Below, in pieces: positions 90 through 30,789 of a stretch of DNA of 32,000 nt. Origin of the DNA: Halogeometricum borinquense DSM 11551 (GTDB taxonomy: Archaea > Halobacteriota > Halobacteria > Halobacteriales > Haloferacaceae); NCBI RefSeq assembly GCF_000172995.2, contig NC_014735.1:1-32000 (forward strand), written 5' to 3'. Positions within the stretch are counted from its first letter, which is position 1; each line of letters starts with the position of its first letter. A model generated the notes under the pieces. It was not told where the DNA came from, searched no databases, and worked only from the letters and a program-made list of their open reading frames with translations. Made by a program: the position numbers and the translations under genes.

Positions 90-1040
90 TCACAGTGGAG
101 TCTCAACTGGAGATTCAACCACGGATTCAGATGACTCGGTCTCTGACTCGGTATACGCCGAAAAGATATCCTCTAGTGAGGCAGTCTCGGTCTCGAATCG
201 TTGTGGGGTAGCTCCCAAGCGGTCAAGATGGTTAAGCGCATCAAGATGACGTCCATGCGCGCACTGAACACGAAGCGTCGTGCCGCTGACCTCGAGGTTT
301 TCGATCCCGTCGAGTGTCGTCAACGAGTCGATATCGTCGGGGACGTGATCGACCGAAACCTGTAGTATGGTGTTGTCTCCGACTGCATTACGAAGCGAGT
401 CAATCGAATCAATCGCCAAAAGCGAGCCCTCATTGAGAATACCGACGCGATCGCAGACCGATTCCACTTGAGCAAGGCGATGGCTGGAAAAGAAGATTGT
501 TGCGCCCCGGGCGCGTTCGTCCCTGATGAATTCTCGCATCAACCGAATGCCGTTCGGGTCGAGCCCGGTCGTTGGCTCATCGAGCAACAGTAGATCGGGC
601 TCGCCGGCGGCTGCCATTGAAAGTAAGAGTCGCTGGCGCATCCCTCGAGAATAGCCAGTCGCGACGCGGTCGGCGTCTTCAAGTAGGCCAAACCGATCGA
701 GTAACGCATCGGGGTCGTCGTCAACGTTCCGAGAGTCAAGCTCGAACTCGACGTGGTCTCGGCCGGTCCAGTCAGGCATTACTTCGTATCCGTCTGGCAC
801 AACGCCGGTACGTTGACGAATTGCCGTCGCATTCTCTGTTGGATCAATCCCAAACACTGACGCCGACCCCGATGTCGGATAAATAAACCCGAGTAGGATG
901 TCGATTGTGGTAGATTTTCCAGAACCGTTGGGTCCCAGAAAGCCGAAGACTTCTCCGTTCTCGATGGACATCTCGAGCGAATCGAGCGCGGTGGTCTCAC
1001 CGTAACGTTTCGTTAACGAATGAGTTTCGATAGGATTCAT
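90..1040 (-). CDS. ABC transporter ATP-binding protein
   Basis: 316-aa ORF with Walker A GPNGSGKST, ABC signature YSRGMRQRL, Walker B LLLLDEPTTGLD and H-loop SSHRL. Acidic C-terminal tail. Confidence 0.9.
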   Translation of the reverse strand: MNPIETHSLTKRYGETTALDSLEMSIENGEVFGFLGPNGSGKSTTIDILLGFIYPTSGSASVFGIDPTENATAIRQRTGVVPDGYEVMPDWTGRDHVEFELDSRNVDDDPDALLDRFGLLEDADRVATGYSRGMRQRLLLSMAAAGEPDLLLLDEPTTGLDPNGIRLMREFIRDERARGATIFFSSHRLAQVESVCDRVGILNEGSLLAIDSIDSLRNAVGDNTILQVSVDHVPDDIDSLTTLDGIENLEVSGTTLRVQCAHGRHLDALNHLDRLGATPQRFETETASLEDIFSAYTESETESSESVVESPVETPL

Positions 1041-1160: not shown

Positions 1161-2117
1161 ATGATGATATTCACACTATATATGCTAGAAGGAATGTATC
1201 TGAATCGAGAGAACAGTAAGTATCGGTTCCGGGGTATCGCTAAGCGATTTCCGCTGGCGACTCGGCACTTCAAGACGAAACTGAAGAACCGTTACTACTG
1301 GCTGTATGGGTTCATCATATTTGTAGCCGGAATGGGTGCGGCAACCGACCTCTTATTCAATCCGGCAAGTGGTTATCAAGGTGGAAGCGCGTATGTGATT
1401 GCTACTTTTGCCTGGGCAATCAGGCTTTTCGGTATTCTCGGAGCTAGTGTTGCAGGGTACTCATTGGTAACGGGTGATCAAGCAAGTGGACGGATCCGAT
1501 TAATACTGAAACTTCCACATACGCGGTGGAAGTACGTTTTCGAGAAGTTCCTCGGTGAGGGCCTCGCGCTTATTACGGTGACCTCGCTTGCAACGATCAC
1601 AGGATTCGCCATCTCGACAATTCTCTATGGTCCACCGCCTGTCCTTCCTGCTGTTGAGGTCTTAATTGTTCAAGAAGGATTTCTGCTTGTCTGGCTCTCG
1701 ATTGCGACGGCGACCTCAATGGCTGTTAAGACCAGTCGTCGAGCTATTGCTGTTCCGGTGGCGCTCTACCTTTCTGCATGGGCTTGGAAGCGCGTTATGA
1801 ATTCGATCTTGCGTGGGATCGGGGAACAATCAATTGCCGTTCGCCTCTTCGCGTACCGACTGGAACCGTCTCGTGCTTATAATGTTACCGTAAACTGGAT
1901 TTTCAATCTTCCAAACTCGGACTTGATGGCGCCGCTTCTGATGGAACACGTTGATCCGAATGGATCTACAATAATCGGCCCTCGTATCGTTTCAGAACTT
2001 GTCGGCGACGTTCCGTGGTTTCTTTCGGAATGGGTATCGGCTCTCGTACTCGTGTTATGGGGAACCGTTCCAATGCTCCTCGCCTACCGCCGGTTTGCAA
2101 CAACTGACATCGCGTGA
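1161..2117 (+). CDS. Polytopic membrane protein, possible ABC-2-type permease partner of the divergent ATPase
   Basis: 318-aa ORF with several long hydrophobic segments, divergent from the ABC ATPase across 120 nt. The start codon is uncertain (ATG-rich N-terminus). No diagnostic motif recognised. Confidence 0.55.
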   Translation: MMIFTLYMLEGMYLNRENSKYRFRGIAKRFPLATRHFKTKLKNRYYWLYGFIIFVAGMGAATDLLFNPASGYQGGSAYVIATFAWAIRLFGILGASVAGYSLVTGDQASGRIRLILKLPHTRWKYVFEKFLGEGLALITVTSLATITGFAISTILYGPPPVLPAVEVLIVQEGFLLVWLSIATATSMAVKTSRRAIAVPVALYLSAWAWKRVMNSILRGIGEQSIAVRLFAYRLEPSRAYNVTVNWIFNLPNSDLMAPLLMEHVDPNGSTIIGPRIVSELVGDVPWFLSEWVSALVLVLWGTVPMLLAYRRFATTDIA

Positions 2118-9592: not shown

Positions 9593-10452
9593 TTAGAGGT
9601 CGACACGCTGGAACCGAACATAACCAACAAACAATGCTCCACCGCCGAGTATGACAAGTGCGCCAATCGAGAAGAAGAGCAGCGACAGTTCACCCATTGG
9701 GACAGCGGTATCTTTCAGTGAGGTGATCCACTCGCCGACCCAAATAAGCGTATGAATCGGATTGAGCCATTCCACGTAAAGAAACCAGGCGGGACTGTTC
9801 CCGGTGGCCGCCGCGTTCAGTGATGGATAGTCAACGATCCTGCAAACACTAGCGAGAACAGGCACATGACTACCATATCCCAGATCCTCGTAACTGGACT
9901 AAAGAACAGGTACGTGCCACAAATAGCAGCTAAGACACGAAACGGTGAGGTGAATGCTGCGGAAACACCGACGACAAAGGTGGTCCAGACGCTGGTGTAG
10001 AACAGAAGCCACCCGGCAGTCAACCCGAATGCGACGAGGGGAATACCACCGTAGACACTGCTCATCAACACGCCGAGAACCACAAACAGCGGCAGCAGCG
10101 TGACCACGACGAGCGACAGCCTCGACACAAGTTTCGCTAGCAAAACGTCTCGTTTGGTAGCAGGAAGTCCGAGGCGAAGTTTTAGTGTTCCTGACTCCCG
10201 TTCGCCCACAACTGCTCGAAACGCGAGGGCGACTGCGAGCGCAATAAATACGTCCGGAAATGAAACGGGAACAGAGACATCGCCTCTCGTGGCGAGGTCC
10301 AGATTTCGTGTCGAATTCCTTCTACGAGGTTCGGAATAGTAACAAACAGCAGTAGCACGAACGCTCCCAACTTTCTTCTAAATCCGCTGCAGAGCGCTCG
10401 CTGAGTTGGTCTGCGAGAGCTATTCCAAACTCACTCAACGGCCGACTCATTC
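9593..10452 (-). pseudogene. ABC-2-type transporter permease, multiply frameshifted
   Basis: Four successive frames carry the pieces: MSRPLSEFGIALADQLSERS; GAFVLLLFVTIPNLVEG; FPDVFIALAVALAFRAVVGERESGTLKLRLGLPATKRDVLLAKLVSR...; NSPAWFLYVEWLNPIHTLIWV...FVGYVRFQRVDL. The ERESGTLKL motif is typical of ABC-2 permeases. Confidence 0.7.
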
Positions 10453-13298: not shown

Positions 13299-13830
13299 TC
13301 ACTGTTTGAGAGCTTGTTCGAGGTTGTGGACTGCGGCGGTCAACACGAGTTCGCGGAACTCGCGGTACCATGCGCGAGGGTGGACAGCGGGGCCGAACCG
13401 ACGCTTGATGGCCGAAAAGGCGGTCTCGGCCATCCAGCGCTGACCGTATAATTCGCTGTCCAACCGTGCGTTGTGGGCGTGATCGTACGCAGCGAACAGT
13501 CGATGGCGCAGCAAGGGCCGGACGCCCTCTGAACGGAGGGCGTCCCGGAGTGATTGGTCGTCATAGCCTTTGTCGCCGGCGAGAATCTCGATTTTTTCTC
13601 GGTGTTGCGAAGAGCGACTCGACGGCCAGTTTGGGTGTCGTGAAGCCAGTGTGCCGAGCAGTGACGACGACGTTCCTCACGCTCGCCGGCCAGCACATCG
13701 GGTTCGACCCACCCGACTAACCGGCTGTTCTCCGCTGGGTTCGCTCAGCGCGTAGCCGCTGCTCTCGCGTTCTCCCCCAGTTTTCGCGTGTTTCATCGGA
13801 CACTCGGTGTCGTCGCATCGAGATAATATC
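13299..13830 (-). pseudogene. N-terminally truncated, frameshifted DDE transposase (IS4/IS5 superfamily type)
   Basis: The C-terminal part is intact: EILAGDKGYDDQSLRDALRSEGVRPLLRHRLFAAYDHAHNARLDSELYGQRWMAETAFSAIKRRFGPAVHPRAWYREFRELVLTAAVHNLEQALKQ. Upstream, VVVTARHTGFTTPKLAVESLF lies in another frame, with the shift near the A-run at about 13585. No N-terminal domain is recognisable. Confidence 0.75.
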
Positions 13831-14370: not shown

Positions 14371-15264
14371 ATGACAACCAATTATCAGATGAGTCTCAGC
14401 ATACAAAATCTAGGAAAACGGTACACCGAAGACGTCTGGGGCGTTCGAAACATCGATCTTGAGTTAGATACCGGTGTTCACGGTCTTCTCGGACCGAACG
14501 GTGCTGGCAAGTCCTCGCTCATGCGGATGATTACGACCGTTATGGAACCGACAAAAGGGTCAATCAGGTGGAACGGCACGGACGTACTCGATTCGCCGGG
14601 AACGATCCGATCGGTTCTGGGCTACCTTCCGCAGGATTTCGGCGTGTATCCCGATTTGACATTGGAGGAGTTCCTCGAGTACGTCGGTGCGTTGCGGTCG
14701 GTGGACTCGAAGACCGTGGCCGCTCGTATCGACGAACTGATCGCGCTGACGAATCTGGAACAGGCTCGCGACCGTAAACTCAAGACCTTCTCCGGCGGAA
14801 TGCGTCAACGGGCAGGAATCGCCCAAGCGCTACTCAACGATCCGGGACTGTTGGTGGTCGACGAACCAACAGTCGGTCTCGATCCGGAGGAGCGTGTCAG
14901 ATTCCGCAATATCATCTCCGATCTGTCGTCAGACCGTGTTGTGATACTCTCAACACACATCGTACCGGACATTGAGGCCACAGCGAACACGATTGCCCTG
15001 CTGGACGACGGGGAACTACTCACCCACACTGATCCCGAGTCACTAATCAAGACTGTCAAAGGGAAGGTCTACACGTACACCACTGACCAGTCCAACCTCG
15101 ACAAGATCCGATCCGATCAGATTATCTCGGGCACTGTCAGTCGCTCGGATGGCATCGAACTCCGGGTGATAGCCGAGGAGCCACCGCATGAGAACGCACG
15201 TGTTGTCCCTCCAACGCTTGAAGATGCCTACCTCTGGCGTGTTGGCCCACAGGTGGCCCGATAG
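14371..15264 (+). CDS. ABC transporter ATP-binding protein
   Basis: Walker A GPNGAGKSS, Q-loop, signature FSGGMRQRAGIA, Walker B LLVVDEPTVGLD and H-loop STHIV, plus a C-terminal accessory domain. The stop is directly followed by the next ATG. Confidence 0.9.
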   Translation: MTTNYQMSLSIQNLGKRYTEDVWGVRNIDLELDTGVHGLLGPNGAGKSSLMRMITTVMEPTKGSIRWNGTDVLDSPGTIRSVLGYLPQDFGVYPDLTLEEFLEYVGALRSVDSKTVAARIDELIALTNLEQARDRKLKTFSGGMRQRAGIAQALLNDPGLLVVDEPTVGLDPEERVRFRNIISDLSSDRVVILSTHIVPDIEATANTIALLDDGELLTHTDPESLIKTVKGKVYTYTTDQSNLDKIRSDQIISGTVSRSDGIELRVIAEEPPHENARVVPPTLEDAYLWRVGPQVAR

Positions 15265-16869
15265 ATGCGCCAGATCTATCATGTGGCCCGAGCCGACTTT
15301 CTCCAGCGAGTCCGTTCGAGCCGACTGATCGCTTTGTTGGCGTTCGTTATATATCTCGGCTATCTCGTCAATACCGGGGAGATCGATCTCGTCTTTCAAC
15401 AGTCCGTGGCTGGTGGCGCCCTTAACAACTACCGTGGAGTGAATAACGCAGCCTGGATTGGCGCTAAAGCAGGGTTGACAGGGAGCTTCTTTGTGGTGTT
15501 CGTTGGGTTCTATCTGGTTAAGAATAGTCTATATCGTGACCGGTCCACAGAAGTCAGTGAACTCCTCGCATCGATGCCGATCTCGAATCCCCGATATCTG
15601 TTAGGAAAGTGGTTGAGCAATGGAGCGTACCTTGGATTAATTGTCAGCGTACTGGGATTGTCAGCCGTCGTTGTGCATGTAGTACACGGTGTCGGTCCCA
15701 CCAACCCGATCAAACTGCTCTTGCCAGTAGTACTATTGGCCATTCCGACTGCCTTTTTCATCGGTGGGGTTGCGCTGCTAGTCGAGACCGTTGAACCCCT
15801 GAACAACACCGCTGGCAACATCCTCTACTTTTTCGGCACGCTCGCGCTCATGAATGTTTTTTATACTGGGACGGTAGCAAACGGCGTCGTGTCCGGGATA
15901 ACCGGCTACTTCGATCCGTTTGGATATACTCCAATCTACGTAGCAATGTACGATTCGGTTCTGTCTATCGCTCCAAACTACACTGGTGGCGTACCGGCTT
16001 TCGGACCGATTTATGTAGAACAAACAATATTTACTTGGAGTGGAGGGGGATGGCCGCTATGGGTGTACCCACAGCGTGCCGGAATGATCGTCGCTGGGGT
16101 CAGTCTCACGGTCTTCGGTACTCTCACATTCAATAGATTCGACCCATCGAAAACAGGGTCGGGGAGGACCACATCACTGCTCCGACGGCTGTTGCCGGAG
16201 CGGTCGTCAACTGAGAGCGTGACTGAACCGCCAGCACCGACGGAGGTCACACTTACACCAGTCAAAACACGAACCGGTAGCGGTCTCTTCCGAATTCTTC
16301 TCGGCGAGTTCCGCATGACCCTGTCCAAGCTCCCGTGGTGGTGGTATCTAGGCGCAGTCGGGATTATTGCAGCCAGCTTAATCCGTCCACAAAATAGAGG
16401 CCCAATTCTACTAATAGCACTCATCTGGCCAATATTCGTCCTGTCGTCGATGGGAGTTCGCGCACAGCGCCATCGTATGGAACCGCTGATCTTCTCGTCC
16501 AACAGCGCGTACACGCAACTCTTCGCCGAGTGGATTGTTGGGGTGACAATCATCGCGGTGCTGGTTGGGAGCAGTATTGGTCTTACCGCCCTGTTGACCT
16601 CGACACCAGTGTTGTTGGGCTATGTAGCGGCGATACTCTTCGTTCCGTCACTTGCTTTAAGTGTCGGTATCTGGAGCGGAAGATCAGAACTATTCGAAGT
16701 GCTGTATCTTGTTATCTGGTTTGTCGGCCCGGCCAACGGACTAAAGCCCGTAGTGTTCACCGCAACGGAAGCTACGGCTCTGTCAACAGTGAGCGTTATT
16801 GTGTACATCTGTCTGGGGCTCTGCTTGTTCGTGGCTAGCTTCGTTCACCGCTCTCGACAGATGGTTTGA
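15265..16869 (+). CDS. Large polytopic ABC transporter permease
   Basis: 534 aa with many TM segments in two blocks separated by a Ser/Thr/Pro-rich loop. The ATG follows the ATPase stop codon with no gap. Confidence 0.8.
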   Translation: MRQIYHVARADFLQRVRSSRLIALLAFVIYLGYLVNTGEIDLVFQQSVAGGALNNYRGVNNAAWIGAKAGLTGSFFVVFVGFYLVKNSLYRDRSTEVSELLASMPISNPRYLLGKWLSNGAYLGLIVSVLGLSAVVVHVVHGVGPTNPIKLLLPVVLLAIPTAFFIGGVALLVETVEPLNNTAGNILYFFGTLALMNVFYTGTVANGVVSGITGYFDPFGYTPIYVAMYDSVLSIAPNYTGGVPAFGPIYVEQTIFTWSGGGWPLWVYPQRAGMIVAGVSLTVFGTLTFNRFDPSKTGSGRTTSLLRRLLPERSSTESVTEPPAPTEVTLTPVKTRTGSGLFRILLGEFRMTLSKLPWWWYLGAVGIIAASLIRPQNRGPILLIALIWPIFVLSSMGVRAQRHRMEPLIFSSNSAYTQLFAEWIVGVTIIAVLVGSSIGLTALLTSTPVLLGYVAAILFVPSLALSVGIWSGRSELFEVLYLVIWFVGPANGLKPVVFTATEATALSTVSVIVYICLGLCLFVASFVHRSRQMV

Positions 16870-16905
16870 GATTTGCTACTCTGAAGGGCGAAGCATTCGT
16901 CTCGA

Positions 16906-16911
16906 TTTTTT
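16906..16911 (+). terminator. Oligo-T tract downstream of the permease gene
   Basis: T6 run 37 nt after the stop at 16869. Archaeal termination commonly uses oligo-T tracts. Confidence 0.3.
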
Positions 16912-17128
16912 GAGTGGCTGGGGTTCAGTCCGTTCCACCGCTGGCACCGATACCCCCGAGCGCTCGCTACGAAGTAATTGCGGTCGGGAGTGTGCATCAA
17001 GAGTCAACAGACAGTGTGTGCATGGGACATATAAAAGGACGAATCCGGTTCGACAATATTTCTGTAATTTCTTTATCACTTTTCTCCTGGCTAGAATTAA
17101 TTACTTATCCGCCCATGGTCAAATCGTC

Positions 17129-17296
17129 ATGTCAAGTGACACTACCGCACTGAACGTCCAGTACAAAGACGAAGGCAACCTGACGAATGATGTCGGTACT
17201 CTCGACCTCACTGAAACTCACGAGTCGATAGAAACCGACGAGGTTGAAAAAAAGATGGACGACTGGGTGGATAGCTGCTTCGTCGCAAGCTGTTAA
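17129..17296 (+). CDS. 55-aa acidic peptide with a C-terminal Cys-containing hydrophobic end; candidate precursor peptide
   Basis: ATG at 17129 gives MSSDTTALNVQYKDEGNLTNDVGTLDLTETHESIETDEVEKKMDDWVDSCFVASC followed by the stop. It forms the tail of the tracked 165-aa ORF 16799..17296, whose upstream part is basic, Cys-rich and non-halophilic. An AT-rich region lies upstream, and a hairpin plus T-run lies downstream. Confidence 0.5.
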   Translation: MSSDTTALNVQYKDEGNLTNDVGTLDLTETHESIETDEVEKKMDDWVDSCFVASC

Positions 17297-17330
17297 ACGG
17301 CACCCATTTCATAGAGTCGAACGGCAAGAA

Positions 17331-17350
17331 CCTCCGCCTGCAGGCGGAGG
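17331..17350. terminator. Perfect GC-rich hairpin downstream of the small ORF
   Basis: CCTCCGCC-TGCA-GGCGGAGG, an 8-bp stem with a 4-nt loop, 35 nt after the stop codon. A T4 run follows at 17399-17402. Function unproven. Confidence 0.3.
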
Positions 17351-17711
17351 CTAAAGCCGGCCGAGTGGCAAACCGCGTCTGATCGTCTTGAACCGATCTT
17401 TTATACTAATATTTAATCTACAGGCTGCCCCATTAAAATGTAGGAATTATCATACCAGATCTGACTCCGATGATGATACCTGTGCCCGAAAATTGTGGTA
17501 ATCCACCAATTGGACTGCGAACCTGAAACTCCTACCGCTCAGAATTCCTCCGTTGCCACGGAAGAGAACAATTCAAGGTGATGATTCCTCCTACAGTATA
17601 AGAATTACCCGCGTCTCTTACAGTGGAGGTTACTTCTCTCCGAGAATACTTGAACAGTGTAAACACCAGACATGATTAATATAATAAGGACGTGGCCTGA
17701 ACCACGGTACG

Positions 17712-18968
17712 ATGGTAGTATTTGGCCTTTCCTTCGAAGGGTTCCCCCATTTTCCACTGAAAGAAGGCAATGACGGGTACCTTATTCCAGATGCATCAGT
17801 CGCTGAGCTATCTGAATGTCACAAGGAGGCTCTCAGTCAATCAGTCGCTACTGCGGTGGAAGCCGAATCGATGGGGTTCGAGTATATCGTTCATGCGGAA
17901 CACCACTCGGAGCTTGTGACGAACAACTCCCCGAACCCGATCCTGACACAAACCGCAATTGCACGAGAGACTCAGGAGATCCGGCTGCTTCAGATGGCGA
18001 ACATCCTCCCGTGGCACGAGCCAGTTCGTCTCGCCGAAATGCTCTCGATGCTAGATATTCTGAGTGACGGCCGGGTCGATGTTGGTGTCGGTGGCGGATC
18101 TCGCGATATTGCCACAGCGACACTCGGTCAGTATTGGGGTGGATCGTCGGCCCACGAACCAAAAAACGAGAAATCATTTGAAGAAAAATTTGAAATTCTG
18201 GTCAAGGCATGGACCGAAGATCTAGTCTCATACCACGGAGAGTTTCATCAGGTACCTCCGAGCTATACCGAACGGGAAATTAGCCATGACATCGCGTACT
18301 TTTCAGACAGTGTCTGTGAGTACGATCTTCACGACTACATCTCTAAAAAGAAAGACACGATAACGCTTGAGGGACTGCCAGTTATTCCACAACCGGAGCA
18401 GGAACCCCACCCACAGTTATGGCGACCGGCACTGTCATCCTCGTCGTCAACGTGGGCAGCACGTCGAGGGATCAACGTTTGTACCCATTTGTTAAGTATC
18501 TCCCAAACTAACGAAGTCGTCGACGCATACTACACCGCTGCCAAGGACGCTGAGTGGCCTGATCGTCAGACAGATTATACTGGGGAGGCGTTTAACTACG
18601 GATGGGATGCTCAGCGAAACCGAGGTGTTGGTATCATTATCTCCATGTTCAACACCGAAGTCGCCGACGACGGGGCGATTGAGCGATGGAAGCGCTCGTT
18701 CAAGCGCGATGAACAACAAAGAAGAAACGACCTCTCAGAGCCAATAAATGTCGATGAGCAGATTCAAGAACGGACAGCTCCCCTCTATGGGGATGCCGCT
18801 GAACTAATCAATGGGCTTGCAGAGGTGATCGAAGAGTGTGCGCTTGATGATGCGCTAATCATCTGTAATCCACACTCTGTCGGCCTTACACACGAAGAGC
18901 GACGAGAGCAGATACGGGCGTTCGCAGACGATGTGATGCCCTACTTCAGAGACGACCAGTATAAGTGA
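17712..18968 (+). CDS. Luciferase-like monooxygenase (LLM) family flavin/F420-dependent oxidoreductase
   Basis: 418 aa. The N-terminal TIM-barrel region is typical of LLMs (AESMGFEYIVHAEHH...RLLQMANILPWHEPVRLAEMLSMLDILSDGRVDVGVGGG...FEILVKAWTEDLVSYHGEFHQVPP). It is larger than typical family members because of insertions. Confidence 0.88.
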   Translation: MVVFGLSFEGFPHFPLKEGNDGYLIPDASVAELSECHKEALSQSVATAVEAESMGFEYIVHAEHHSELVTNNSPNPILTQTAIARETQEIRLLQMANILPWHEPVRLAEMLSMLDILSDGRVDVGVGGGSRDIATATLGQYWGGSSAHEPKNEKSFEEKFEILVKAWTEDLVSYHGEFHQVPPSYTEREISHDIAYFSDSVCEYDLHDYISKKKDTITLEGLPVIPQPEQEPHPQLWRPALSSSSSTWAARRGINVCTHLLSISQTNEVVDAYYTAAKDAEWPDRQTDYTGEAFNYGWDAQRNRGVGIIISMFNTEVADDGAIERWKRSFKRDEQQRRNDLSEPINVDEQIQERTAPLYGDAAELINGLAEVIEECALDDALIICNPHSVGLTHEERREQIRAFADDVMPYFRDDQYK

Positions 18969-19083
18969 ACGGTTGAGAGTGCAGATCCCCGGTAGAGTAA
19001 CAGACGGAATAATACATATACGAGAGCTTAGAATTGATTGACTGTCTAAAGGTGAAAGATCGAGAGCAGTTGCATGGTCCAGG

Positions 19084-19260
19084 TTAGTTGGTTGAAACAG
19101 ATTGCGAGCAATTGGAGCCACTGTCGGCGGGGTCAGAGATGAGCGTGTATTGCGAACGACTCAGTCCGGCATTGGAGTCTAAGACAATAACAGGCCGCCT
19201 GTAACAACGGTACGCCATCAACGATAAAGACTACCTCGGAAGCGCGACATTTTTTCAGAG
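19084..19260 (-). pseudogene. Remnant of the C-terminal end of a second IS6-type transposase
   Basis: The minus-strand frame reads KKCRASEVVFIVDGVPLLQAACYCLRLQCRTESFAIHAHL*PRRQWLQLLAICFNQLT. From memory, it resembles the C-terminal end of haloarchaeal IS6 (ISH14-like) transposases (a ...FLVDG...LQAAC... segment near a C-terminal ...WLQAF...NQL...). There is an internal deletion and an in-frame stop. Further decayed sequence probably extends toward about 19800. Confidence 0.45.
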
Positions 19261-20375
19261 TTCTTCGATATTTATGGCATCGGCCTGAGTCGTAAGCAAG
19301 GACAGATAGGTGTGAGAACCATTTTTGTTATCCACGATGCTTAAGCAAGTAACCCTGAACCTTCGAGCGGTATTCGTGACTGAGGAACTCTTAGCATACG
19401 GTGGGAAAAGGATGTTTTGAACCCCTAATGCTCTCGTCCTTGGTTGTTTCCTCGGGACTATGATAGCGTTTGACGAATTCGTCTATCGAATTAGGAAGAG
19501 ATAGCAGCCACACAGGATACCCCCAAGTAGATTTCGTAGCAGAGGTCAAGGTCAAAACTCGTTCTTCGTACTATCCGGCATTTCATACGCTTTTCCTGAA
19601 GATTCTCGCAGTAGCCAGGACACTAATCCTCCTAAACCCGATTTCCCCGCGTTATATGCAGTGAGCAGTTTGACCATCTCTCGACAGCGGTCTGGAAAGT
19701 ACTACTGCGCCGATAGAAGGGTTGACTAGCAGAAATTCTACGGGATCGACAATCCCAAGCGAGCCGTGAGACCGTAGGGTAGATATTGTATGATGATTCA
19801 GCAGAGCTTTTGAAAAATAATTCCAACAGAGATGGAATATTAAACCTGAACTATAAAATTCCACTGTGACAATAATAATATTGTAATGCTGGAATGAGTA
19901 CATTCTCATAATCGTGACGAACCCACCGAGACATAATGAGGACGGGAGACCAGCAGATCAGTCTCAGACAAACAGTTGCTCCATCACCATTCAAGAACAG
20001 GATAGTAATACCGGTATCGGGATTTAATCTGAGAATATATGATTGGATTCGGCCGTAAGAGCGCTCAGATCTCACTAATCGTACGCCACTCATAACGAGG
20101 AAGACACATAAGAAGTGATACACATTTAGCACCTTGCTATTTCATAATATGACTGTCATTATTAGCTGTATAATTACGCTGTTTGTCAAAGAAAGACATC
20201 ACTCAACCGAAATAGAATAAAAACAGTACCCTAGCAAGTGGCCAATCCGCTATTCTCAAAGGTAAATCCGCACTATCCACGCATCAAAGCGGTGCGTAGT
20301 CCGGTTACCGACTCCGAAACTATCCCATCGAGAGACTGTTTTCAGCGCGGTGAGTGCGGAGAACAGAAAAAGAGA

Positions 20376-20894
20376 CTACTCGAATAGCTCAGCGTGGCGC
20401 TCAGCAAGTTCCGTGTATTCCGTTGCAGAGTACTTGCTGAGAAGTTCCTCGATATCGATACCGGCCTCAGACAGTGGAGTAACTTCCGCGGGAACACCCC
20501 GAACGAACGACTCCGGCGGAATATCGCGCCCCTCGGGAACAACACAGCCAGCGGCAACGATACTCCGCTCACCGACCGTCACATCCGTATTTATCGTGGC
20601 ATTGAATCCGATGAGCGTGCTGTCTTCGACGACGGCCTCATTAAGCACCGAGCCGTGACCAACCATCACCCGATTGCCGATAGTTGAGGCGTGAAGGACA
20701 GCGTTATCAGCAACGTGTGATTCCGCCCCAATTCGGACCGAGCCGATATCACCCCGGAGAACAACCCCAGGCCAGACACTTGCGTTCGCAGCAACCCGAA
20801 CATCACCGACAAGCGTGGACATCTGGCTCACATGAGCATCCGCGTCGATGGTCGGCGTGTCACCTTCGAACTCGTAGATCCTCGGATCGTTCAT
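20376..20894 (-). CDS. Gamma-carbonic-anhydrase-like / left-handed beta-helix (hexapeptide repeat) protein
   Basis: Start MNDPRIYEFEGDTPTIDADAHVSQMSTLVGDVRV..., with hexapeptide repeats throughout and the His residues typical of the gamma-CA/PaaY family. 172 aa counted from the internal ATG at 20894. Confidence 0.88.
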   Translation of the reverse strand: MNDPRIYEFEGDTPTIDADAHVSQMSTLVGDVRVAANASVWPGVVLRGDIGSVRIGAESHVADNAVLHASTIGNRVMVGHGSVLNEAVVEDSTLIGFNATINTDVTVGERSIVAAGCVVPEGRDIPPESFVRGVPAEVTPLSEAGIDIEELLSKYSATEYTELAERHAELFE

Positions 20895-21320
20895 AGTGAT
20901 TGGTACGTGAGATACCGCATTAAGTATTGTTCGTGTATCACGAATTAAGACACGCGACAACGGTACTGGTTCTACATTCATACACGGCAGACTGAAAGCT
21001 CGTGTACGAAGTGCGCGTACCGAGATAAGTGTGCGAACTGGAGTAGTTTCTTTGCGTGTGTGACAGTCAGTAGTAGTTACTGAGAGGACAAGACGATAAC
21101 GAACGAACGCCACACCATGCAAGGAAACACCGTGATATCCGGTTTGTTTTAGTACCTCGCTGACAGTAATCGATGCACGAGTGGAGCACATCAGCACCAC
21201 ACAACGACCGGCCGTACTCTCCTGCGACAAACCCGAGGTAATCCGCAGTAAGAGCCTACTGCCACGGCAAACTCGAATTGACAGATCGTCCTTCACTCTC
21301 GCCTTTTCTTACCACTGAAG

Positions 21321-21715: not shown

Positions 21716-22183
21716 ATGAGCAGTAACCCCATAGAGACCACGTTCGACCTGCAGCATCAGTCAGTCAAACAAGCCCGAGAAATCGTTGAACAGAACGTCA
21801 AACTTCAACAGTCGATGATGCAGTCAGTCCCGGATGGCATGGACGCCCAGCGGTCGGTACAACACAGAGCTTCGGACCTCTCGAAGCAAGCACTTCACAC
21901 GTATGCTGAAGCTATCGAAGCGGCGAGTCCGGAGGCCGAGATGTCGTTCGAGGATATGCACCAAGCAATCGACGATGGGTTCGACATGTTCAACGAATCG
22001 TTGGACGACATGTGGGACTACTACGAACAGATCGTCGATATGAACGTCGAAGCGTACGACGAGTTCGCAGACACGCAACTCAACTTCGTACACGACTCGT
22101 TCGACGCATTTCTGGAATCGTACGAGGCAGTCGAAGAGCAAACGATAGAGATAACGAATCCGGAAATGCATCCGGAGGACTAA
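21716..22183 (+). CDS. phaP: Haloarchaeal phasin PhaP
   Basis: 155-aa, very acidic helical protein located 5 nt after phaR and upstream of phaE. Position and size match the haloarchaeal PhaP. Confidence 0.7.
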   Translation: MSSNPIETTFDLQHQSVKQAREIVEQNVKLQQSMMQSVPDGMDAQRSVQHRASDLSKQALHTYAEAIEAASPEAEMSFEDMHQAIDDGFDMFNESLDDMWDYYEQIVDMNVEAYDEFADTQLNFVHDSFDAFLESYEAVEEQTIEITNPEMHPED

Positions 22184-22208
22184 TTACATTAAAGAAACAT
22201 ATTGAACT

Positions 22209-22763
22209 ATGAACTCCAACTCCGGTGGAGAGAGTCCACCAGGCGGCGACTGGGGATTCGAACAACTGAGAGAAGCATACATGGAGGGATTCGAACGGAA
22301 CATCGAAGCCCAGTCGGCGTTCGTGGAGGCATGGCAGGACGCGGTTGACGAAACGATGCTGTCGGAGGAGGCGATGCAAGATAGTATCGAAGGCTACGTC
22401 GGCGCGTACGAAGTCTGGATGGACGCGGCTGAGGCCTCTCTCTCACGAATGAGTAGTGCGTACGAAGGAAAGGACGTCGATATTTCCAACTTCAGAGATA
22501 TCTGGCTCGAAGCCGCCAACGACGCGTTCAAAGAGATTGCGTCCACACAGGGGTTCGCTACCATGACGGGCCAAACGGTCGAAGAATCATTCGGCCTCAG
22601 AGGAGACTTCGGTGAAATACAACGGGAGACGTTACGAAACCTCGGCGTTCCGACCGAGTCGGACATCGACGAAATCGGAGAACGACTCCTCGAATTCGAG
22701 CGACGACAGCACAAGGTAGAGCAGAAGCTAGACGAAGTCCTCAACGCACTCGAAGAGGAATGA
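22209..22763 (+). CDS. phaE: PHA synthase subunit PhaE (class III, haloarchaeal type)
   Basis: 184 aa containing ...[17 protein letters not shown]...[16 protein letters not shown]...[26 protein letters not shown], which matches haloarchaeal PhaE by recall. ATGA overlap with phaC at 22760-22763. Confidence 0.85.
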
Positions 22764-24100
22764 ATCCGTACAGTGCTCCGTTAGAGTTCCAAGCGCAAAC
22801 GTGGGAGGACGCTGCCGAGGCCATCGAACAGATGACCGGAGCGCCCGACCAGCTGGAGCGAATGCAATCGGTTGAGGTCGGACAGACACCAAGCGAGGTT
22901 GTCTACTCGGAGAACAAACTCGACTTACTGCATTACGAACCGCGGACCGACGAGCAACTTGACGTTCCGATACTCATTGTCTACGCGCTGATTAATCGGC
23001 CGTACATCCTCGACTTGCAACCGAACCGGAGCGTCGTACGGACACTTCTCGACCAGGGTCTCGATGTCTACCTCATCGACTGGGGAGAGCCCTCTCGGCT
23101 CGATGCCAGTCTCACCCTTGACGACTACGTCAACCGGTACATCGAGAACTGTGTCGATGTCGTTCGTGACCGGTCCGACCAAGACTCCATCAACGTCCTC
23201 GGTTACTGTATGGGAGGAACAATGAGTGCCATGTACACCGCGCTCCATCCCGAGAAGGTACGCAATCTCGGGCTGATGGCGTCCGGACTCTGCTTCAACG
23301 ACACTGGTGGCACCTTGGAGTTTTGGGGCGACGAAGAGTACTACAATCCGGAAGCGGTAACCGACGTATCCGGAAACGTTCCATCGGAGTTTCTCGACGT
23401 TGGGTTCGCACTCATGGACCCAGTCGATAACTACCTCACGAAGTACATCCGTCTGTTCGAGAATCTCGACAACGACAGCTTCGTGGAGAACTTCGCCCGA
23501 ATGGAAAAATGGCTTTCCGATGGGATCGACGTCGCCGGCGAGACGTACAACCAGTTCCTACAGGACATCTATCAGGACAACAAACTGGTGAACGGCGAAC
23601 TCATGCTCGGCGAACAGCACGTTGATCTGGCGAACATCGACATGCCGGTGATACAGATTATCGGCGAACACGACCATCTGATTCCCCCTGAGTCGAGTAT
23701 CCCGTTCAACGATGCGATTGCCAGCGATGACACCATGGTCATCGAGTTCCCCACCGGCCACATCGGGCTCTCCGTCTCGAGCAAGTCCCACGCAGAACTG
23801 TGGCCGCAAGTTTGCGACTGGTACGTACAGCGGTCACAACACGAAGAGACGGAGAGTACCTCAGCGGAAGCAACCGACGAGCCAGCGACCGAGAGTGCAG
23901 CGGTCGAGGAGTCGGCCGAGCTGGAGGACATCACCGGAATCGGTCCGGCATATGCTACGCGGTTGCGCGAATCAGGTATCGAAACCTTCGAAGATCTCGC
24001 CTCAGCAGAGGTGTCGATAGCCGAACAAATAGACGTCTCTGAAAGCCAGTTCCAGCAGTGGATCGACGAGGCCAACGAACGTCTCAACAAGAACGACTAA
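22760..24100 (+). CDS. phaC: PHA synthase catalytic subunit PhaC (class III) with C-terminal extension
   Basis: Alpha/beta-hydrolase fold with lipase-box GYCMGG (Cys150), Asp305 in [10 protein letters not shown] and His334 in PTGHIG. An acidic linker and helix-hairpin-helix-like [24 protein letters not shown] lie at the C-terminus. Confidence 0.95.
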
Positions 24101-24123
24101 TCGTTCTTCTCTCCCATCGATCA

Positions 24124-24128
24124 TTTTT
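24124..24128 (+). terminator. Oligo-T tract after phaC
   Basis: T5 run 24 nt after the phaC stop, in the 90-nt gap between convergent genes. Confidence 0.25.
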
Positions 24129-24190
24129 ACGTTTCAGACCGGACCGGACACACCGACGTATCGAGTGTCTGCGTTTGAATGCCTATTGGC

Positions 24191-24700
24191 TTACTCCGAC
24201 AGTTGCTCAGAGGGCATGCGAAAGCCCTCGAAGCGGTCGAACCAGTCACTGCCCTCTCTCAATGCCTCAATACAGTCATCGACTGTGAACACGTCGTCAC
24301 GAGCGCACGGGAACACTCCCTTGAGAGAGTCATCCTCGTAGACAGCGAGACAGACGACCGGCAAGACGAGTACTTCGTACGTCTCGTTCATCTCCAGCGG
24401 CGATAGTTCGTTCTCCTGGAACGCCGGTTCTAACGTCATCCCATTCTCCGCTGCCCAAGACTGGAACTCGCGAACGGTATCCAGATTCCCCATCGCAGTG
24501 GTAACTGAACAAGAGGGGGAGGTGTTGATCGACCGACCCCACACATCGACTGTGTACTCGTTGATTTTGCCGTCAGACTCAAGTTGGTCTAGGCGCTCGA
24601 TAATCGATTCTGGTCTATCGTACGCACCACGTGGCATCTGTTCGCGGATACGAACTTCGACACGACGCTGTGACTGGTCCACTGTCCCTCTCATACTCAT
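24191..24700 (-). CDS. Hypothetical protein, function unknown
   Basis: 169-aa ORF of acidic composition, convergent with phaC. No motif recognised. Confidence 0.65.
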   Translation of the reverse strand: MSMRGTVDQSQRRVEVRIREQMPRGAYDRPESIIERLDQLESDGKINEYTVDVWGRSINTSPSCSVTTAMGNLDTVREFQSWAAENGMTLEPAFQENELSPLEMNETYEVLVLPVVCLAVYEDDSLKGVFPCARDDVFTVDDCIEALREGSDWFDRFEGFRMPSEQLSE

Positions 24701-24836
24701 ACACTCTCAATCAAGTCTAATAGTACTTTTTCTAATTCACCGGTACTATCGAACACCTTGTGATACATTTTCACAGTATCATATGAGAAGTGGTACACAG
24801 AAAAAGATATGCCGGAGAAACAGAACGCGCCGCCAC

Positions 24837-25502
24837 CTAGAACGTTTCAGTGTACTCCGGCGGTTCATCGATAAGAACAATAGCTTCACCATCAGCAAGC
24901 TTCTCGCCGGATTCGTTATGAACGACCGTATCGAGTCGATATCTACTCTCTCCGAATGCTTCTGTGATTTCACAGGTCGCAGTCAACGTCCCGCCGGGTT
25001 CCGCAGCGGAGAGGAATTCGAGATCCTGCGAGAGATATATCGTTACGCCGGGAAATCGTGCCAAAGCGGCACTTATCAAGCCCGAGATGAGGGTCCCGTG
25101 GACAATCGGGGTCCCAAACCGTGTGCGCTTGGCGAATTCGTCGTCGAGATGTAACGGATTCGTATCACCGCTGATCGTGGCGAACGCACTGACATCCTCA
25201 CTGGAGAGTTGCTTCGTGAACGAGACGCGCTCACCAACACCCAGTTCCTCATACCGGTTCACAGAGCGCTCAAACGACCATTGATGTCGTGTCTCGAGTA
25301 TACTATCCAATTCAACGCCCTCATCGTCTACGTGAGACGTCTGACCGCCCAACGATGCGATAAAAGCGTGGTTCGCCTCGATAAGTCCGTTGAAAAGGTA
25401 CCCAGAACTTCGCTGAACGTGTTCTGAGGCTCGAAGCCACGCGCTGCTTAGCGACTGTGGCTGATATGCAGGGGTGGTTTGGCTGTGTTCGTCACCAGAC
25501 AT
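24837..25502 (-). CDS. maoC: MaoC-like (R)-specific enoyl-CoA hydratase / dehydratase with N-terminal extension
   Basis: Hot-dog fold motifs FATISGDTNPLHLDDEFAKRTRFGTPIVHGTL. About 85 extra N-terminal residues of unknown function. Confidence 0.88.
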   Translation of the reverse strand: MSGDEHSQTTPAYQPQSLSSAWLRASEHVQRSSGYLFNGLIEANHAFIASLGGQTSHVDDEGVELDSILETRHQWSFERSVNRYEELGVGERVSFTKQLSSEDVSAFATISGDTNPLHLDDEFAKRTRFGTPIVHGTLISGLISAALARFPGVTIYLSQDLEFLSAAEPGGTLTATCEITEAFGESRYRLDTVVHNESGEKLADGEAIVLIDEPPEYTETF

Positions 25503-25721
25503 AGGTAACCGTCAGGTCTCCCAAAACAAAAACCCATATGACCGTTTAGTGTGTCTGGCGTGTCTTTTTACTGGATGGTAAGCCATAACAACTGTCAACA
25601 ATTCTAATAGGTATCCCGTCAGCACGAGTTAATCTCTCTCTTCACCGGTAGACTGTCCATTTCGATATAGTCGAAACGTGAAGTAAGATTTTTGTGGGTT
25701 GTGCGCTAGAGAATAACACAC

Positions 25722-25892
25722 ATGATGATGGGTAATAAATGCACCGTTTGCGGCGAACGATTAACAGAGAAGCACGTGCGTGATTGTACGATATGTGGGT
25801 GTCAGATGCACAACCAGTGCATGGAGTACTTCCAGACGTACGAGTGCCAGACGTGCGGTGATGAAACGTGGATCGGAGCAGTCGAACTATGA
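25722..25892 (+). CDS. 56-aa double zinc-finger micro-protein
   Basis: MMMGNKCTVCGERLTEKHVRDCTICGCQMHNQCMEYFQTYECQTCGDETWIGAVEL. It carries CxxC pairs (CTVC, CTIC, CQTC) plus further Cys/His. Below the 60-aa cutoff of the ORF track. Confidence 0.5.
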   Translation: MMMGNKCTVCGERLTEKHVRDCTICGCQMHNQCMEYFQTYECQTCGDETWIGAVEL

Positions 25893-25984
25893 CACCCACA
25901 GGACACCTTCCACGAGACGTCGATCCACGAGTTGCCTCTAGTTTGATTAGTCCATGCTTCGATCAGTGATTCCGCAATCCGACA

Positions 25985-26443
25985 TTAAATCAGTTCGAAT
26001 CGGTATCCATCCCACTCTTGACTCTCTGCGACCCGAATACCGCTTGCTGAGTCACGGAGCGAACCCACGTATACAGGCCGGACTTCGTCGCCGATGGCCA
26101 CATCAACTGACATCTCCTCGTCGGTCCCTGATCCATCATCGAAATCGCCAGCGGTCGCCAACTGCCCAATCGCTCGAACAGATTCACCGTCGATATCAAA
26201 TTCAACGATAGCGACCGGGTTCGGACGGCGGACTCCCGACGGAGTCGCAGTACTGACAGTCCACGTGAGGACCGTCGCAGTGTACTCACTGAGATCAATC
26301 ATCTCAACCGAAGCACCTCCGTTCGGTCCAATCGGATGTTCCGGATACGTGATGCTCCCGTCGGGGTATCGGAACGCCTTCATCGGAGGCTGTGCGTCGT
26401 GATTATCGCTCGTGCTCGAATCGTCGTTCAGTTCGTGGCTCAT
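25985..26443 (-). CDS. OB-fold (DUF35-type) small subunit of the haloarchaeal beta-ketothiolase
   Basis: 152 aa. Its start overlaps the stop of the thiolase gene by 4 nt. The OB-fold-like region is ...TVLTWTVSTATPSGVRRPNPVAIVEFDIDGESVRAIGQL. Two-subunit thiolases (BktB/PhaA alpha plus beta) are known from Haloferax mediterranei. Confidence 0.8.
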   Translation of the reverse strand: MSHELNDDSSTSDNHDAQPPMKAFRYPDGSITYPEHPIGPNGGASVEMIDLSEYTATVLTWTVSTATPSGVRRPNPVAIVEFDIDGESVRAIGQLATAGDFDDGSGTDEEMSVDVAIGDEVRPVYVGSLRDSASGIRVAESQEWDGYRFELI

Positions 26444-27597
26444 GCTTGTCCCTCCATAATGGTCGTAATAACGCAGTTCCCAAATCCACCCACGTTACAC
26501 GTCAAGCCGACATCGGCATCCACCTGTCGTGGTCCCGCATCGTTCGTAACCTGTTTGTGGATTTCGTACGCCTGTGCGACTCCCGATGCGCCGAGGGGAT
26601 GTCCCTTGGATTTCAGTCCACCTGAGGTATTGATTGGTAGGTCACCGTCACGGTGGGTGATACCGTCCTCGACCGCCTTCCATCCCTCGCCCTTCTCGAA
26701 GAAGCCGAGATCTTCGGACTGAAGGAACTCGAGGATGGAGAACATATCGTGCAGTTCCGCCACGTCGATATCGCCGGGGTTCCGGCCGGCCATCTCGTAA
26801 GCGATGTTACCTGATTCGACAACGCCGCGCATCGTTGTCGGGTCCGAACGCTCGTGGACGACGTGTGTGTCCGTCGCGCCGCCAACACCGGTGACGACCG
26901 AGTACTCGTCTGTGTACTCGCGGGCGACCGACTCCGGACAGAACAGTAGCGCTGCACTCCCGTCCGAAATCGGACAGAAGTCGTACAAGCGGAGCGGGTC
27001 AGCGATGACGGGTGCTTCAAGAGCGTCTTCGAGCGTTATTTCCTTGCGGAACTGAGCGTGGGGGTTATCGACACCGTTTGCGTGGTTTTTCACCGCAACC
27101 CTCGCTAAACTCTCACGTGGAGCGTCGTACTCGTGGAGGTAACGCCGAGCCGTGAGACCAGCGAAGGTAGGGAGTGTAATGCCGTGTTTGTACTCAACCG
27201 GATGAGTAATCGAGGCAATAATATCTGTTGTGTCTGCAGTTGATCGATGTGTCATCTTCTCGCCGCCGACGAGAAGCGTCATCTCTGAGGCACCCGAGGC
27301 GATAGATTGCCACGCGGCATAAACTCCTGCACCACCCGACGACGAGGTTTGATCGATTCGCGTGGTGTACGCTGGGAGCATCGAAAGGTCGTGTGCGAGT
27401 GCGTTGGGGATGCCAGTCTGTCCCTCGAACTCCCCGCTGGCCATGTTCGAGACGTAGAGGTGATCGACAGAATCGGGGCTCACCCCGACATCGTCGAGAC
27501 AGGCCTCACCGGCTTCCGCCAATAGGTCGAGGATAAACTGTCCTTCACGATTGCCAAACTGCGTCATCGACGCGCTAATAACAGCTACGCGTTCCAT
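26440..27597 (-). CDS. Thiolase-like catalytic subunit (beta-ketothiolase alpha subunit)
   Basis: The start MERVAVISASMTQFGNREG at 27597 is typical of archaeal thiolases. It has the thiolase fold with C-terminal NTSGGLKSKGHPLGASG and CNVGGFGN motifs. The longer ORF reaching 27705 is probably an over-extension. Confidence 0.9.
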   Translation of the reverse strand: MERVAVISASMTQFGNREGQFILDLLAEAGEACLDDVGVSPDSVDHLYVSNMASGEFEGQTGIPNALAHDLSMLPAYTTRIDQTSSSGGAGVYAAWQSIASGASEMTLLVGGEKMTHRSTADTTDIIASITHPVEYKHGITLPTFAGLTARRYLHEYDAPRESLARVAVKNHANGVDNPHAQFRKEITLEDALEAPVIADPLRLYDFCPISDGSAALLFCPESVAREYTDEYSVVTGVGGATDTHVVHERSDPTTMRGVVESGNIAYEMAGRNPGDIDVAELHDMFSILEFLQSEDLGFFEKGEGWKAVEDGITHRDGDLPINTSGGLKSKGHPLGASGVAQAYEIHKQVTNDAGPRQVDADVGLTCNVGGFGNCVITTIMEGQA

Positions 27598-28039
27598 ACT
27601 CCTGCATGCTATTGGGTCCATCATGAACGTTTGGGCTAGCTCAATTTCGATTCGATCAATCGATACTTCGAACAGGCCGCCCGTGATCTGTGGACAGCCC
27701 CTCATCCAAGAGAATATGATTGAGAGATATTAAATATTGGATATTAGATATGTTTATTATGTCACAACATGAGGTTGTACATTCAACAGAGGTCGGAAAG
27801 TCATGTACAAGCTACTCAACGTGAGAATGAAGTCCACAACCAACCACGGCTGTAAACACATACTAGGAATAGGGAGACATCCATAGCCACGGGAGGATAT
27901 ACCATCACATCTGGCATAATGCTTATTAACTACTCGTAAGTAGAAACACAATGGATGGGACAAAAGTGTCTGTACCGTCCGGATAGGGCCGTCTCTGTCC
28001 TACTCGCAAACATCAAAACAGGGACAATAATCGAAATCC

Positions 28040-28783
28040 ATGAACACCAATAAACGAACCTGCGTTATCACCGGCGCATCCAGAGGCATCGGGCGTGCGA
28101 TCACGAAGGAACTCGGACAATCCGGCGCAAACGTCATCGTCAACTATCGGTCATCAGAGTCGGCCGCATACGATGTCGCTGAGTCCATCGAAGAAAACGG
28201 GGGAACTGCGGTCCCAGTGCAAGCAGACGTTTCAGACATATCACAAGTTAAGGCGATGCGCGATACCGTACACGGCGAGTTCGGTTCGATAGACGTTCTC
28301 GTCAACAACGCCGGTATCACAGTCGACAAGACGTTCACGAACATGACCGAAGCGGACTGGAAACAAGTCATAGATGTCAACCTCGGCGGCGTATTCAACT
28401 GTACGAAAACGTTCTACGAGGATATTAAGAAGGCCAACGAGGGGAGACTAATCAATATCTCGAGCGTCATCGGCAAACAGGGGAACTACGGGCAGTCCAA
28501 CTACGCGGCGAGTAAAAGTGGCATGCTCGGCTTTACGCGTTCTATCGCACTGGAGCTGGCATCGTCCGGGTCCACTGCAAACTGTGTCGCCCCCGGATAC
28601 ACCCGAACCGACATGGTCGATGACGTCCCCGAAGATATTCAAGACAAACTCCGGTCAAAGATTCCCCTGAATCGGTTCGCGGAGCCAGAAGAAATCGCGA
28701 ACGTCGTCCGATTTCTGGCCAGCGAGGAGTCGTCCTACATGACCGGAGAGGTAATCGACGTGAACGGTGCGATCGACCTCTGA
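28040..28783 (+). CDS. phaB: SDR-family 3-oxoacyl / acetoacetyl-CoA reductase (PhaB/FabG type)
   Basis: [10 protein letters not shown] cofactor motif, NNAG, and catalytic S...YAASK. Divergent from the thiolase operon. The phaB symbol rests on context only. Confidence 0.85.
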
Positions 28784-28793
28784 ATCTACATCG

Positions 28794-30789
<1,996 letters not shown>

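Follow-up and report, generated by a model that had tools for sequence, protein, structure and literature searches.

The window analyzed here, a 32,000-nucleotide stretch of DNA from Halogeometricum borinquense DSM 11551 (contig NC_014735.1, positions 1 to 32,000), carries on its forward strand a small lanA-like gene for a putative precursor peptide at positions 17129–17296. The ATG at 17129 starts a frame of 55 codons that is closed by a TAA at 17294–17296, and the product is MSSDTTALNVQYKDEGNLTNDVGTLDLTETHESIETDEVEKKMDDWVDSCFVASC. A TLDLTETHESIE stretch and a C-terminal WVDSCFVASC had been pointed out in a sequence-only reading of this DNA, and both are present in the peptide. The same reading had treated the ORF as untracked, which is incorrect; the translation is identical to that of an existing NCBI entry, “hypothetical protein C499_14000” of H. 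borinquense DSM 11551. The ORF was located on contig AOHT01000044.1 (362,641 bp) and on a second contig (0.2–1 Mb), as well as in two run assemblies. All contigs recorded with the peptide were 1 Mb or less in size, and a replicon in which so small an ORF had gone uncalled would escape such a listing. The four contigs that bear the ORF were 100% identical, and they consequently offer no within-species variation to examine.

It had also been proposed that the sequence changes from basic and rich in Cys and Arg to acidic at the ATG at 17129, and the composition bears this out. The 55-residue part has a pI of 4.05, with 14 Asp and Glu residues versus three Lys and Arg, and the GC fractions at its first, second, and third codon positions (.52/.34/.61) are coding-like and close to those of the neighboring genes. 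By contrast, the 110 residues that precede it within a longer, 165-residue ORF have a pI of 9.2, 13 Lys and Arg residues, seven Cys residues, and a flat codon-position profile (.45/.52/.45). Coding-type composition begins precisely at the ATG. The 165-residue ORF, which starts from a TTG at 16799, was rejected as a real gene because the portion before the ATG shares sequence with the 3′ end of the preceding permease gene, encodes a basic stretch, and lacks a coding-type GC profile. Given the switch in composition at the ATG, the NCBI annotation, and the candidate TATA and terminator elements that flank it, the ORF at 17129–17296 is a genuine small gene.

The first of these elements is an AT-rich TTAATTA on the forward strand (17097–17103), the center of which lies about 29 nt upstream of the ATG. 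A matching element, TTAATATAATAA (17676–17687), is found at the next gene downstream, centered about 30 nt before that gene's own ATG. AT-rich elements some 29–30 nt before the start codon fit the leaderless transcripts of haloarchaea, and TTAATTA, judged by its letters and position, may be the TATA box for a leaderless transcript of the peptide gene. On the 3′ side, a perfect 8-bp GC hairpin with a 4-nt loop, CCTCCGCC-TGCA-GGCGGAGG, occupies positions 17331–17350 of the forward strand, 35 nt past the stop codon, and has no second copy in the window. The hairpin had been described exactly in the sequence-only reading, but the T-run said to accompany it is not adjacent; some 50 nt and a second, weaker hairpin separate the two. 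This weak hairpin (17381–17398) and the TTTT that follows it (17399–17402), both on the forward strand, resemble a terminator and constitute a candidate archaeal oligo-T terminator. The region 3′ of the peptide gene folds with a z-score of −2.4, and an Rfam scan of positions 16000–20500 returned no RNA family.

Directly upstream of the peptide gene and in the same direction lie genes for an ABC ATPase (14371–15264, forward strand) and a 534-residue ABC-2 permease (15265–16869, forward strand), both identified using Pfam; the permease is the longest ORF in the window. The pair could be an exporter or an immunity pump. No counterpart of the permease was found in related clusters, and the ATPase gave only generic matches there (31–34% identity). 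Downstream, on the same strand, a gene for a 418-residue luciferase-like (LLM) flavin oxidoreductase (17712–18968; PF00296) starts 416 nt after the peptide gene. It is followed by a 1.4-kb AT-rich stretch (18969–20375) in which there is no ORF of at least 120 residues.

Other features of the window were recorded alongside. A 71-residue C-terminal fragment of a DDE transposase is encoded on the reverse strand at 13299–13514, just upstream of the ABC genes; the same gene call at locus L099 has a weak match to PF01609 (DDE_Tnp_1), and the fragment looks like the remnant of an IS4/IS5-type insertion sequence. A truncated, 130-residue ABC-2 fragment (9817–10209, reverse strand) matches a permease of Natronobiforma, and together with the transposase fragment it points to rearrangement. 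A second ABC pair, divergently arranged, is found near the start of the window, with an ATPase at 90–1040 (reverse strand) and an ABC-2 permease at 1161–2117 (forward strand). This ATPase shares 52% identity with the ATPase next to the LLM gene of the Natronobiforma lanthipeptide cluster; at locus L102, too, ABC genes that match the pair adjoin the LLM gene. The 90–2117 pair and the 9817–10209 fragment may be scattered pieces of an ancestral cluster, or they may just be common transporters.

Beyond the AT-rich stretch, a hexapeptide-repeat or gamma-carbonic-anhydrase-like ORF (20376–21296, reverse strand) extends for 306 residues from the first GTG; public gene calls give it only 172 residues (20376–20894), and its N-terminal 130 residues look non-coding. 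A polyhydroxyalkanoate (PHA) gene block occupies 21716–30338 and comprises a phasin-like ORF (21716–22183), PhaE (22209–22763), PhaC (22760–24100), an HTH_63 regulator (24191–24700, reverse strand), a MaoC dehydratase (24837–25502, reverse strand), an OB-fold protein plus a thiolase (25985–27705, reverse strand), an SDR reductase (28040–28783), and a carboxyltransferase (28767–30338). Within this interval, a 56-residue Cys-rich ORF with several CxxC pairs (25722–25892, forward strand; MMMGNKCTVCGERLTEKHVRDCTICGCQMHNQCMEYFQTYECQTCGDETWIGAVEL) looks like a zinc-ribbon micro-protein that is unrelated to the precursor family discussed below. The GC content of the window is only 44–58% per kilobase and about 50% around the locus, below that of the H. 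borinquense chromosome, which we take to be roughly 60%; the low value suggests an AT-rich island or a megaplasmid region.

Alignments and the presence of a shared motif divide the peptide into two parts. The putative leader (residues 1–47; 17129–17269, forward strand) starts with Met-Ser and is acidic. The putative core (residues 48–55; 17270–17293, forward strand) is DSCFVASC, in which two Ser and two Cys residues are arranged as D-S-C-x3-S-C and the last residue is Cys. Precursors with the same form, i.e. an MS-start, an acidic leader, and a C-terminal SC-x3-SC core, are encoded in clusters of related haloarchaea around LanM, the class II lanthipeptide synthetase. Examples of their cores are DSCGFNSC, DSCWSSSC, DSCGSESC, DSCVSDSC, and ISCGSASC-stop, and the core spacing in the window peptide is identical to that in the precursors of loci L002, L004 (three copies), L005/L094, L093, L096, and L097. 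The precursor of Haladaptatus cibarius is MSATSMPTNDLKAQFEDKYARDEPTIDELEHDAAAPDSCGFNSCNTQLQ, and the three tandem copies of Natronobiforma end in PKDSCWSSSCN, PKDSCWSSSCGA, and VPDSCWSSSCN. The endings of the others are PKDSCGSESCNDGVSE (the MAG QS_1_68_20 and contig L094), AKDSCVSDSCNETVRT (L097), and GGSCDACSCT (L093); the L096 precursor is MSAVDNSLRTQFEEQYEPTQPEPEEQEAVVISCGSASC-stop. Both the L096 and window peptides end in A-S-C-stop. Most members of the family carry residues beyond the second Cys (N, GA, NTQLQ, or NDGVSE), and a terminal Cys is therefore not a feature of the family. The published archaeal LanA library includes the Natronobiforma and H. cibarius precursors under the label “predicted lanthipeptide”. 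With such relatives at hand, the division into leader and core that had been proposed from the sequence was right in kind.

The leader of the window peptide has diverged from those of the family. Over residues 1–19 it can be aligned gap-free with the L096 leader, with M1, S2, L8, Q11, and T19 identical. Thereafter it contains some 17–25 extra acidic residues (13 + 4 gap columns versus L096, and more versus the shorter leaders), and the F-E-x-x-Y-A-R-D-E-P-T pattern of the family is missing. Similarity to the family over the leader only was not significant (p about 0.07).

Conventional searches with the peptide were largely empty. An exhaustive phmmer search of 1.84 billion representative proteins identified no relative, returning the peptide itself and one compositional match (a 2462-residue protein); in a word-based protein search, the peptide was its own sole match. 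No family in Pfam or NCBIfam matched it, and no PLSDB plasmid matched the locus in a blastn search. Profile HMMs were built from six or nine family precursors and run against all ORFs of the window. In a search with a profile of the family precursors, the window ORF scored E = 3.7 and ranked 9th of 794, and with the nine-precursor profile it was matched at the core only (2.9 bits); the profiles thus gave no support for homology outside the core. In a shuffle test that preserved the composition of the peptide, the summed alignment score to nine family members was 339, versus 188 ± 27 for the shuffled sequences, and none of 2000 shuffles reached 339.

The frequency of the core motif was also assessed. 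A six-frame translation of the fetched DNA (885 kb; 1.77 million residues) contained eight occurrences of D-S-C-x3-S-C: six in LanM-linked precursor genes, one in the window ORF, and one, spurious, in a frame with stop codons. This puts the background rate at no more than one per 1.77 million residues, so the chance expectation is at most about 0.04 for the whole window, and it is far lower for a spot 416 nt upstream of an LLM gene of the LanM-linked clade. Because the HMM and leader scores are not significant and the phmmer search was empty, the argument for homology is built on the eight-residue motif plus the gene context. Common descent of the peptide with the LanM-linked precursors appears well supported by these two, not by conventional sequence statistics.

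The gene context is supplied mainly by the LLM. Its closest homologues are 41–54% identical and are all haloarchaeal. In nine of the 11 homologue contexts examined, the LLM gene adjoins a LanM gene (DUF4135 plus LANC_like); these are Natronobiforma cellulositropha, H. cibarius, the MAG QS_1_68_20, and metagenome contigs L092–L097, and the contigs of the other two (L098 and L102) are too short to tell. Four further homologues reside on contigs of a size matching those with LanM matches. The genome scan returned eight loci, the source genome not being among them, and a metagenome scan with the LLM alignment yielded only distant LLMs (22–35% identity) that were useless for context. A neighbor-joining tree places the LLM of the window within the LanM-linked clade, as the sister of the Natronobiforma enzyme. 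LLMs at 39–41% identity without a neighboring LanM group apart from this clade and are not accompanied by a comparable small ORF. At 70 positions, conservation among the other 26 homologues reaches 90% or more, and the window enzyme retains every one of them, the best result in the set, shared with the homologue P0014. The solved structures nearest to the window enzyme are FMN monooxygenases. In the SC-x3-SC clusters, the members of this clade are about 420 residues long and adjoin LanM; H. cibarius and L096 have two tandem copies. The words “monooxygenase” and “oxidoreductase” are absent from the main texts of the two main papers on archaeal lanthipeptides (Liang 2023, PMC10105419; Song 2025, PMC12144867). 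The LLM clade is tightly linked to one LanA subfamily, and the link is undiscussed in the main text of these two key papers.

At the H. borinquense locus, LanM is missing. The window was searched with tblastn using two archaeal LanMs; the best E-value was 0.2, and neither a LanM nor a remnant of one was found. The AT-rich stretch downstream of the LLM gene likewise gave no LanM, MFS, or acetyltransferase remnant in tblastn searches. Remnants of the MFS, acetyltransferase, peptidase, and methyltransferase genes of the related clusters were sought in the window as a whole, and only ABC genes matched. In a published antiSMASH 7 table, H. borinquense (GCA_000172995.2) has two terpene regions, a single region for each of the RRE-containing, RiPP-like, and NI-siderophore types, and no lanthipeptide region (Song 2025, PMC12144867). 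Our own search, in which the 8000 best word-sharing candidates were scored, found 63 LanM homologues, none of them from Halogeometricum. The absence of LanM from the genome is stated on the basis of this published table and the word-filtered search. The LLM of the window branches within a group of LanM-linked relatives, so the condition without LanM is the derived one. What marks a cluster as one of the class II lanthipeptide type is a LanM (a DUF4135 dehydratase plus a LanC-like cyclase) encoded in it or elsewhere in the genome; none was found for this locus, and the locus is accordingly classed as a variant, a stranded precursor–LLM pair, and not as a member of the class II clusters. Signs of LanM decay were seen in relatives as well. 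In the MAG QS_1_68_20, a duplicated 54-residue C-terminal fragment of LanM lies just downstream of the LLM gene (L005, 11326–11487, reverse strand), and in L095 (2664–5797, reverse strand) LanM is split into a DUF4135 ORF of 651 residues and a LanC-like ORF of 393 residues.

The explanation that we favor, and that we hold to be probable with a good deal of room left for others, is that a lanthipeptide-type precursor and its tailoring LLM have been stranded by the loss of LanM. The peptide gene would descend from a family of haloarchaeal class II clusters that combine SC-x3-SC precursors, LanM, and the characteristic LLM. In the relatives, LanM would bind to the leader and remove water from both core Ser residues, and its addition of the two Cys thiols to them would close two lanthionine rings. 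The LLM would then probably tailor the product, for which FMN-type oxygenation is the closest precedent, and the leader would be removed and the peptide exported. In H. borinquense, the precursor gene and the LLM gene would have survived beside an ABC-2 transporter after LanM was lost, and without LanM the peptide, if made, would at most form a disulfide. We infer this ring chemistry, the role of the LLM, and a present-day lack of maturation. For DSCFVASC, the calculated [M+H]+ is 831.301 in the linear form, 829.286 with a disulfide, 795.280 with two lanthionines, and 811.275 with two lanthionines and one added oxygen; the corresponding values for WVDSCFVASC are 1116.449, 1114.433, 1080.428, and 1096.423. 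It had been suggested beforehand that a peptide ending in Cys with Ser or Cys nearby might be a substrate for thioether chemistry. The analogy was well aimed, as the peptide shares its form with published predicted lanthipeptides, but because LanM is absent from both the window and the published antiSMASH inventory, modification of the peptide in H. borinquense probably does not happen. The LLM is without signs of decay and the precursor ORF is intact, which is unexpected for an old relic; this fits either a recent loss of LanM or a continuing function.

A rival explanation is a LanM-independent system, in which the LLM oxidizes or cross-links the Cys residues of the SC-x3-SC peptide, or a disulfide forms, and the ABC-2 transporter exports the product. 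The conservation of all 70 positions in the LLM despite the absence of LanM speaks for this, as do the intact precursor ORF and core behind a leader that has drifted from the F-E-x-x-Y…P-T pattern, the common direction of the ABC, peptide, and LLM genes, and the similar promoter-like elements of the latter two. However, LanM stands beside the LLM gene in every informative relative, the distant LLMs that are without LanM are also without such a peptide, and the ABC permease is not common to the related clusters; moreover, no LLM that acts on an unmodified Cys peptide is known to us. We consider this reading unlikely, if worth keeping in view, and give somewhat less credence still to its stricter form, in which peptide, LLM, and ABC-2 exporter are a working system and the LLM modifies the Cys/Ser core directly. 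Alternatively, the intact precursor and LLM could be at work with a synthetase encoded elsewhere in the genome that processes the peptide in trans, in the manner of the prochlorosins; bacterial precursor genes that lie far from their LanM are known. There being no LanM in the window, no Halogeometricum protein among the 63 LanM homologues, and, for GCA_000172995.2, only terpene, RRE-containing, RiPP-like, and siderophore regions in the antiSMASH 7 table, this arrangement seems highly improbable.

The peptide could also be encoded by a chance, untranslated ORF in a long intergenic spacer, its acidity and SC-x3-SC end being coincidental; the lack of a homologue among 1.84 billion representatives, the non-significant HMM scores, and the complete identity of the four carrying contigs are all compatible with that. 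Yet a motif expected 0.04 times or fewer per window is found 416 nt before an LLM gene that belongs to the LanM-linked clade, the codon-position GC becomes coding-like at the ATG, and no shuffle out of 2000 matched the observed score, making coincidence a doubtful account. Finally, a Cys end with a Ser six residues upstream formally resembles the C-termini of epidermin- and mersacidin-type peptides, and the sequence-only reading had drawn an analogy to AviCys chemistry, in which a LanD-type flavoprotein decarboxylates the C-terminal Cys and the latter is joined to a dehydrated Ser. Neither an HFCD/LanD domain nor a dehydratase was found in the ORFs of the window that were scanned (30 ORFs, all of at least 120 residues apart from the peptide), and most peptides of the family do not end in Cys. 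AviCys/LanD chemistry was rejected for want of a decarboxylase domain in this set; we assign this reading next to no probability.

The stranding of a lanthipeptide-type precursor and its LLM by loss of LanM, the reading that we prefer, bears on a young field, as archaeal lanthipeptides were first characterized only in 2023–2025. The published precursor libraries were built around LanM, and a precursor in a genome that lacks LanM is for that reason invisible to them. The locus indicates that precursor and tailoring genes can outlive the synthetase. If the LLM no longer acts on the peptide, the locus would be a clean case of cluster decay on a haloarchaeal replicon; if it still does, new RiPP chemistry would be involved, and a true LanM-independent system would amount to a new enzymatic route, derived from lanthipeptide machinery, to a modified archaeal peptide. 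In either event, the window peptide is a ready substrate for studies of leader tolerance in archaeal LanMs.

Several known systems can be set beside the locus. The AviCys lanthipeptides (epidermin, gallidermin, and mersacidin) share with the window peptide a C-terminal Cys with an upstream Ser, but their synthesis depends on a LanD decarboxylase and a dehydratase, and the scanned ORFs of the window yielded neither. The prochlorosins offer lanA-like genes without an adjacent synthetase, as seen here, and many procA genes lie far from a single procM; Prochlorococcus genomes do encode ProcM, whereas no LanM is known for H. borinquense. In the actagardine cluster (GarA, GarM, and GarO), as probably also in the related haloarchaeal clusters, a flavoenzyme with the LLM fold serves as a tailoring enzyme in a class II setting. 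GarO is a luciferase-like monooxygenase that oxidizes a lanthionine of actagardine to the sulfoxide, and actagardine carries such a sulfoxide. By analogy, GarO-like oxygenation would be the closest precedent for the role of the window LLM. A different activity is attributed to the LLM-type reductases of two-component lanthipeptides, which are thought to convert Ser to D-Ala, as in birimositide (PMC10676316).

The closest comparison is with the haloarchaeal class II LanA precursors, represented by the H. cibarius D43 precursor WP_267879589.1, which adjoins the LanM HL45_RS12075, and by the three tandem ORFs that adjoin the Natronobiforma cellulositropha LanM N0B15_RS13405 (PMC10105419; PMC12144867). 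Ciblan A1 derives from another H. cibarius cluster than the one with the SC-x3-SC precursors. The window locus differs from this family in that its peptide has no LanM in the window or in the published inventory, in the hydrophobic interior of its core (FVA) where that of the family is polar, and in its leader, a putative 47 residues versus 30–45 in the family, which lacks F-E-x-x-Y-A-R-D-E-P-T and contains the approximately 17–25 additional acidic residues. What the two have in common is the MS-start, the acidic leader, the C-terminal (D)SC-x3-SC, and a neighboring LLM of the same clade, and the window peptide resembles archaeal class II LanA precursors in how it would work and is in all likelihood derived from them.
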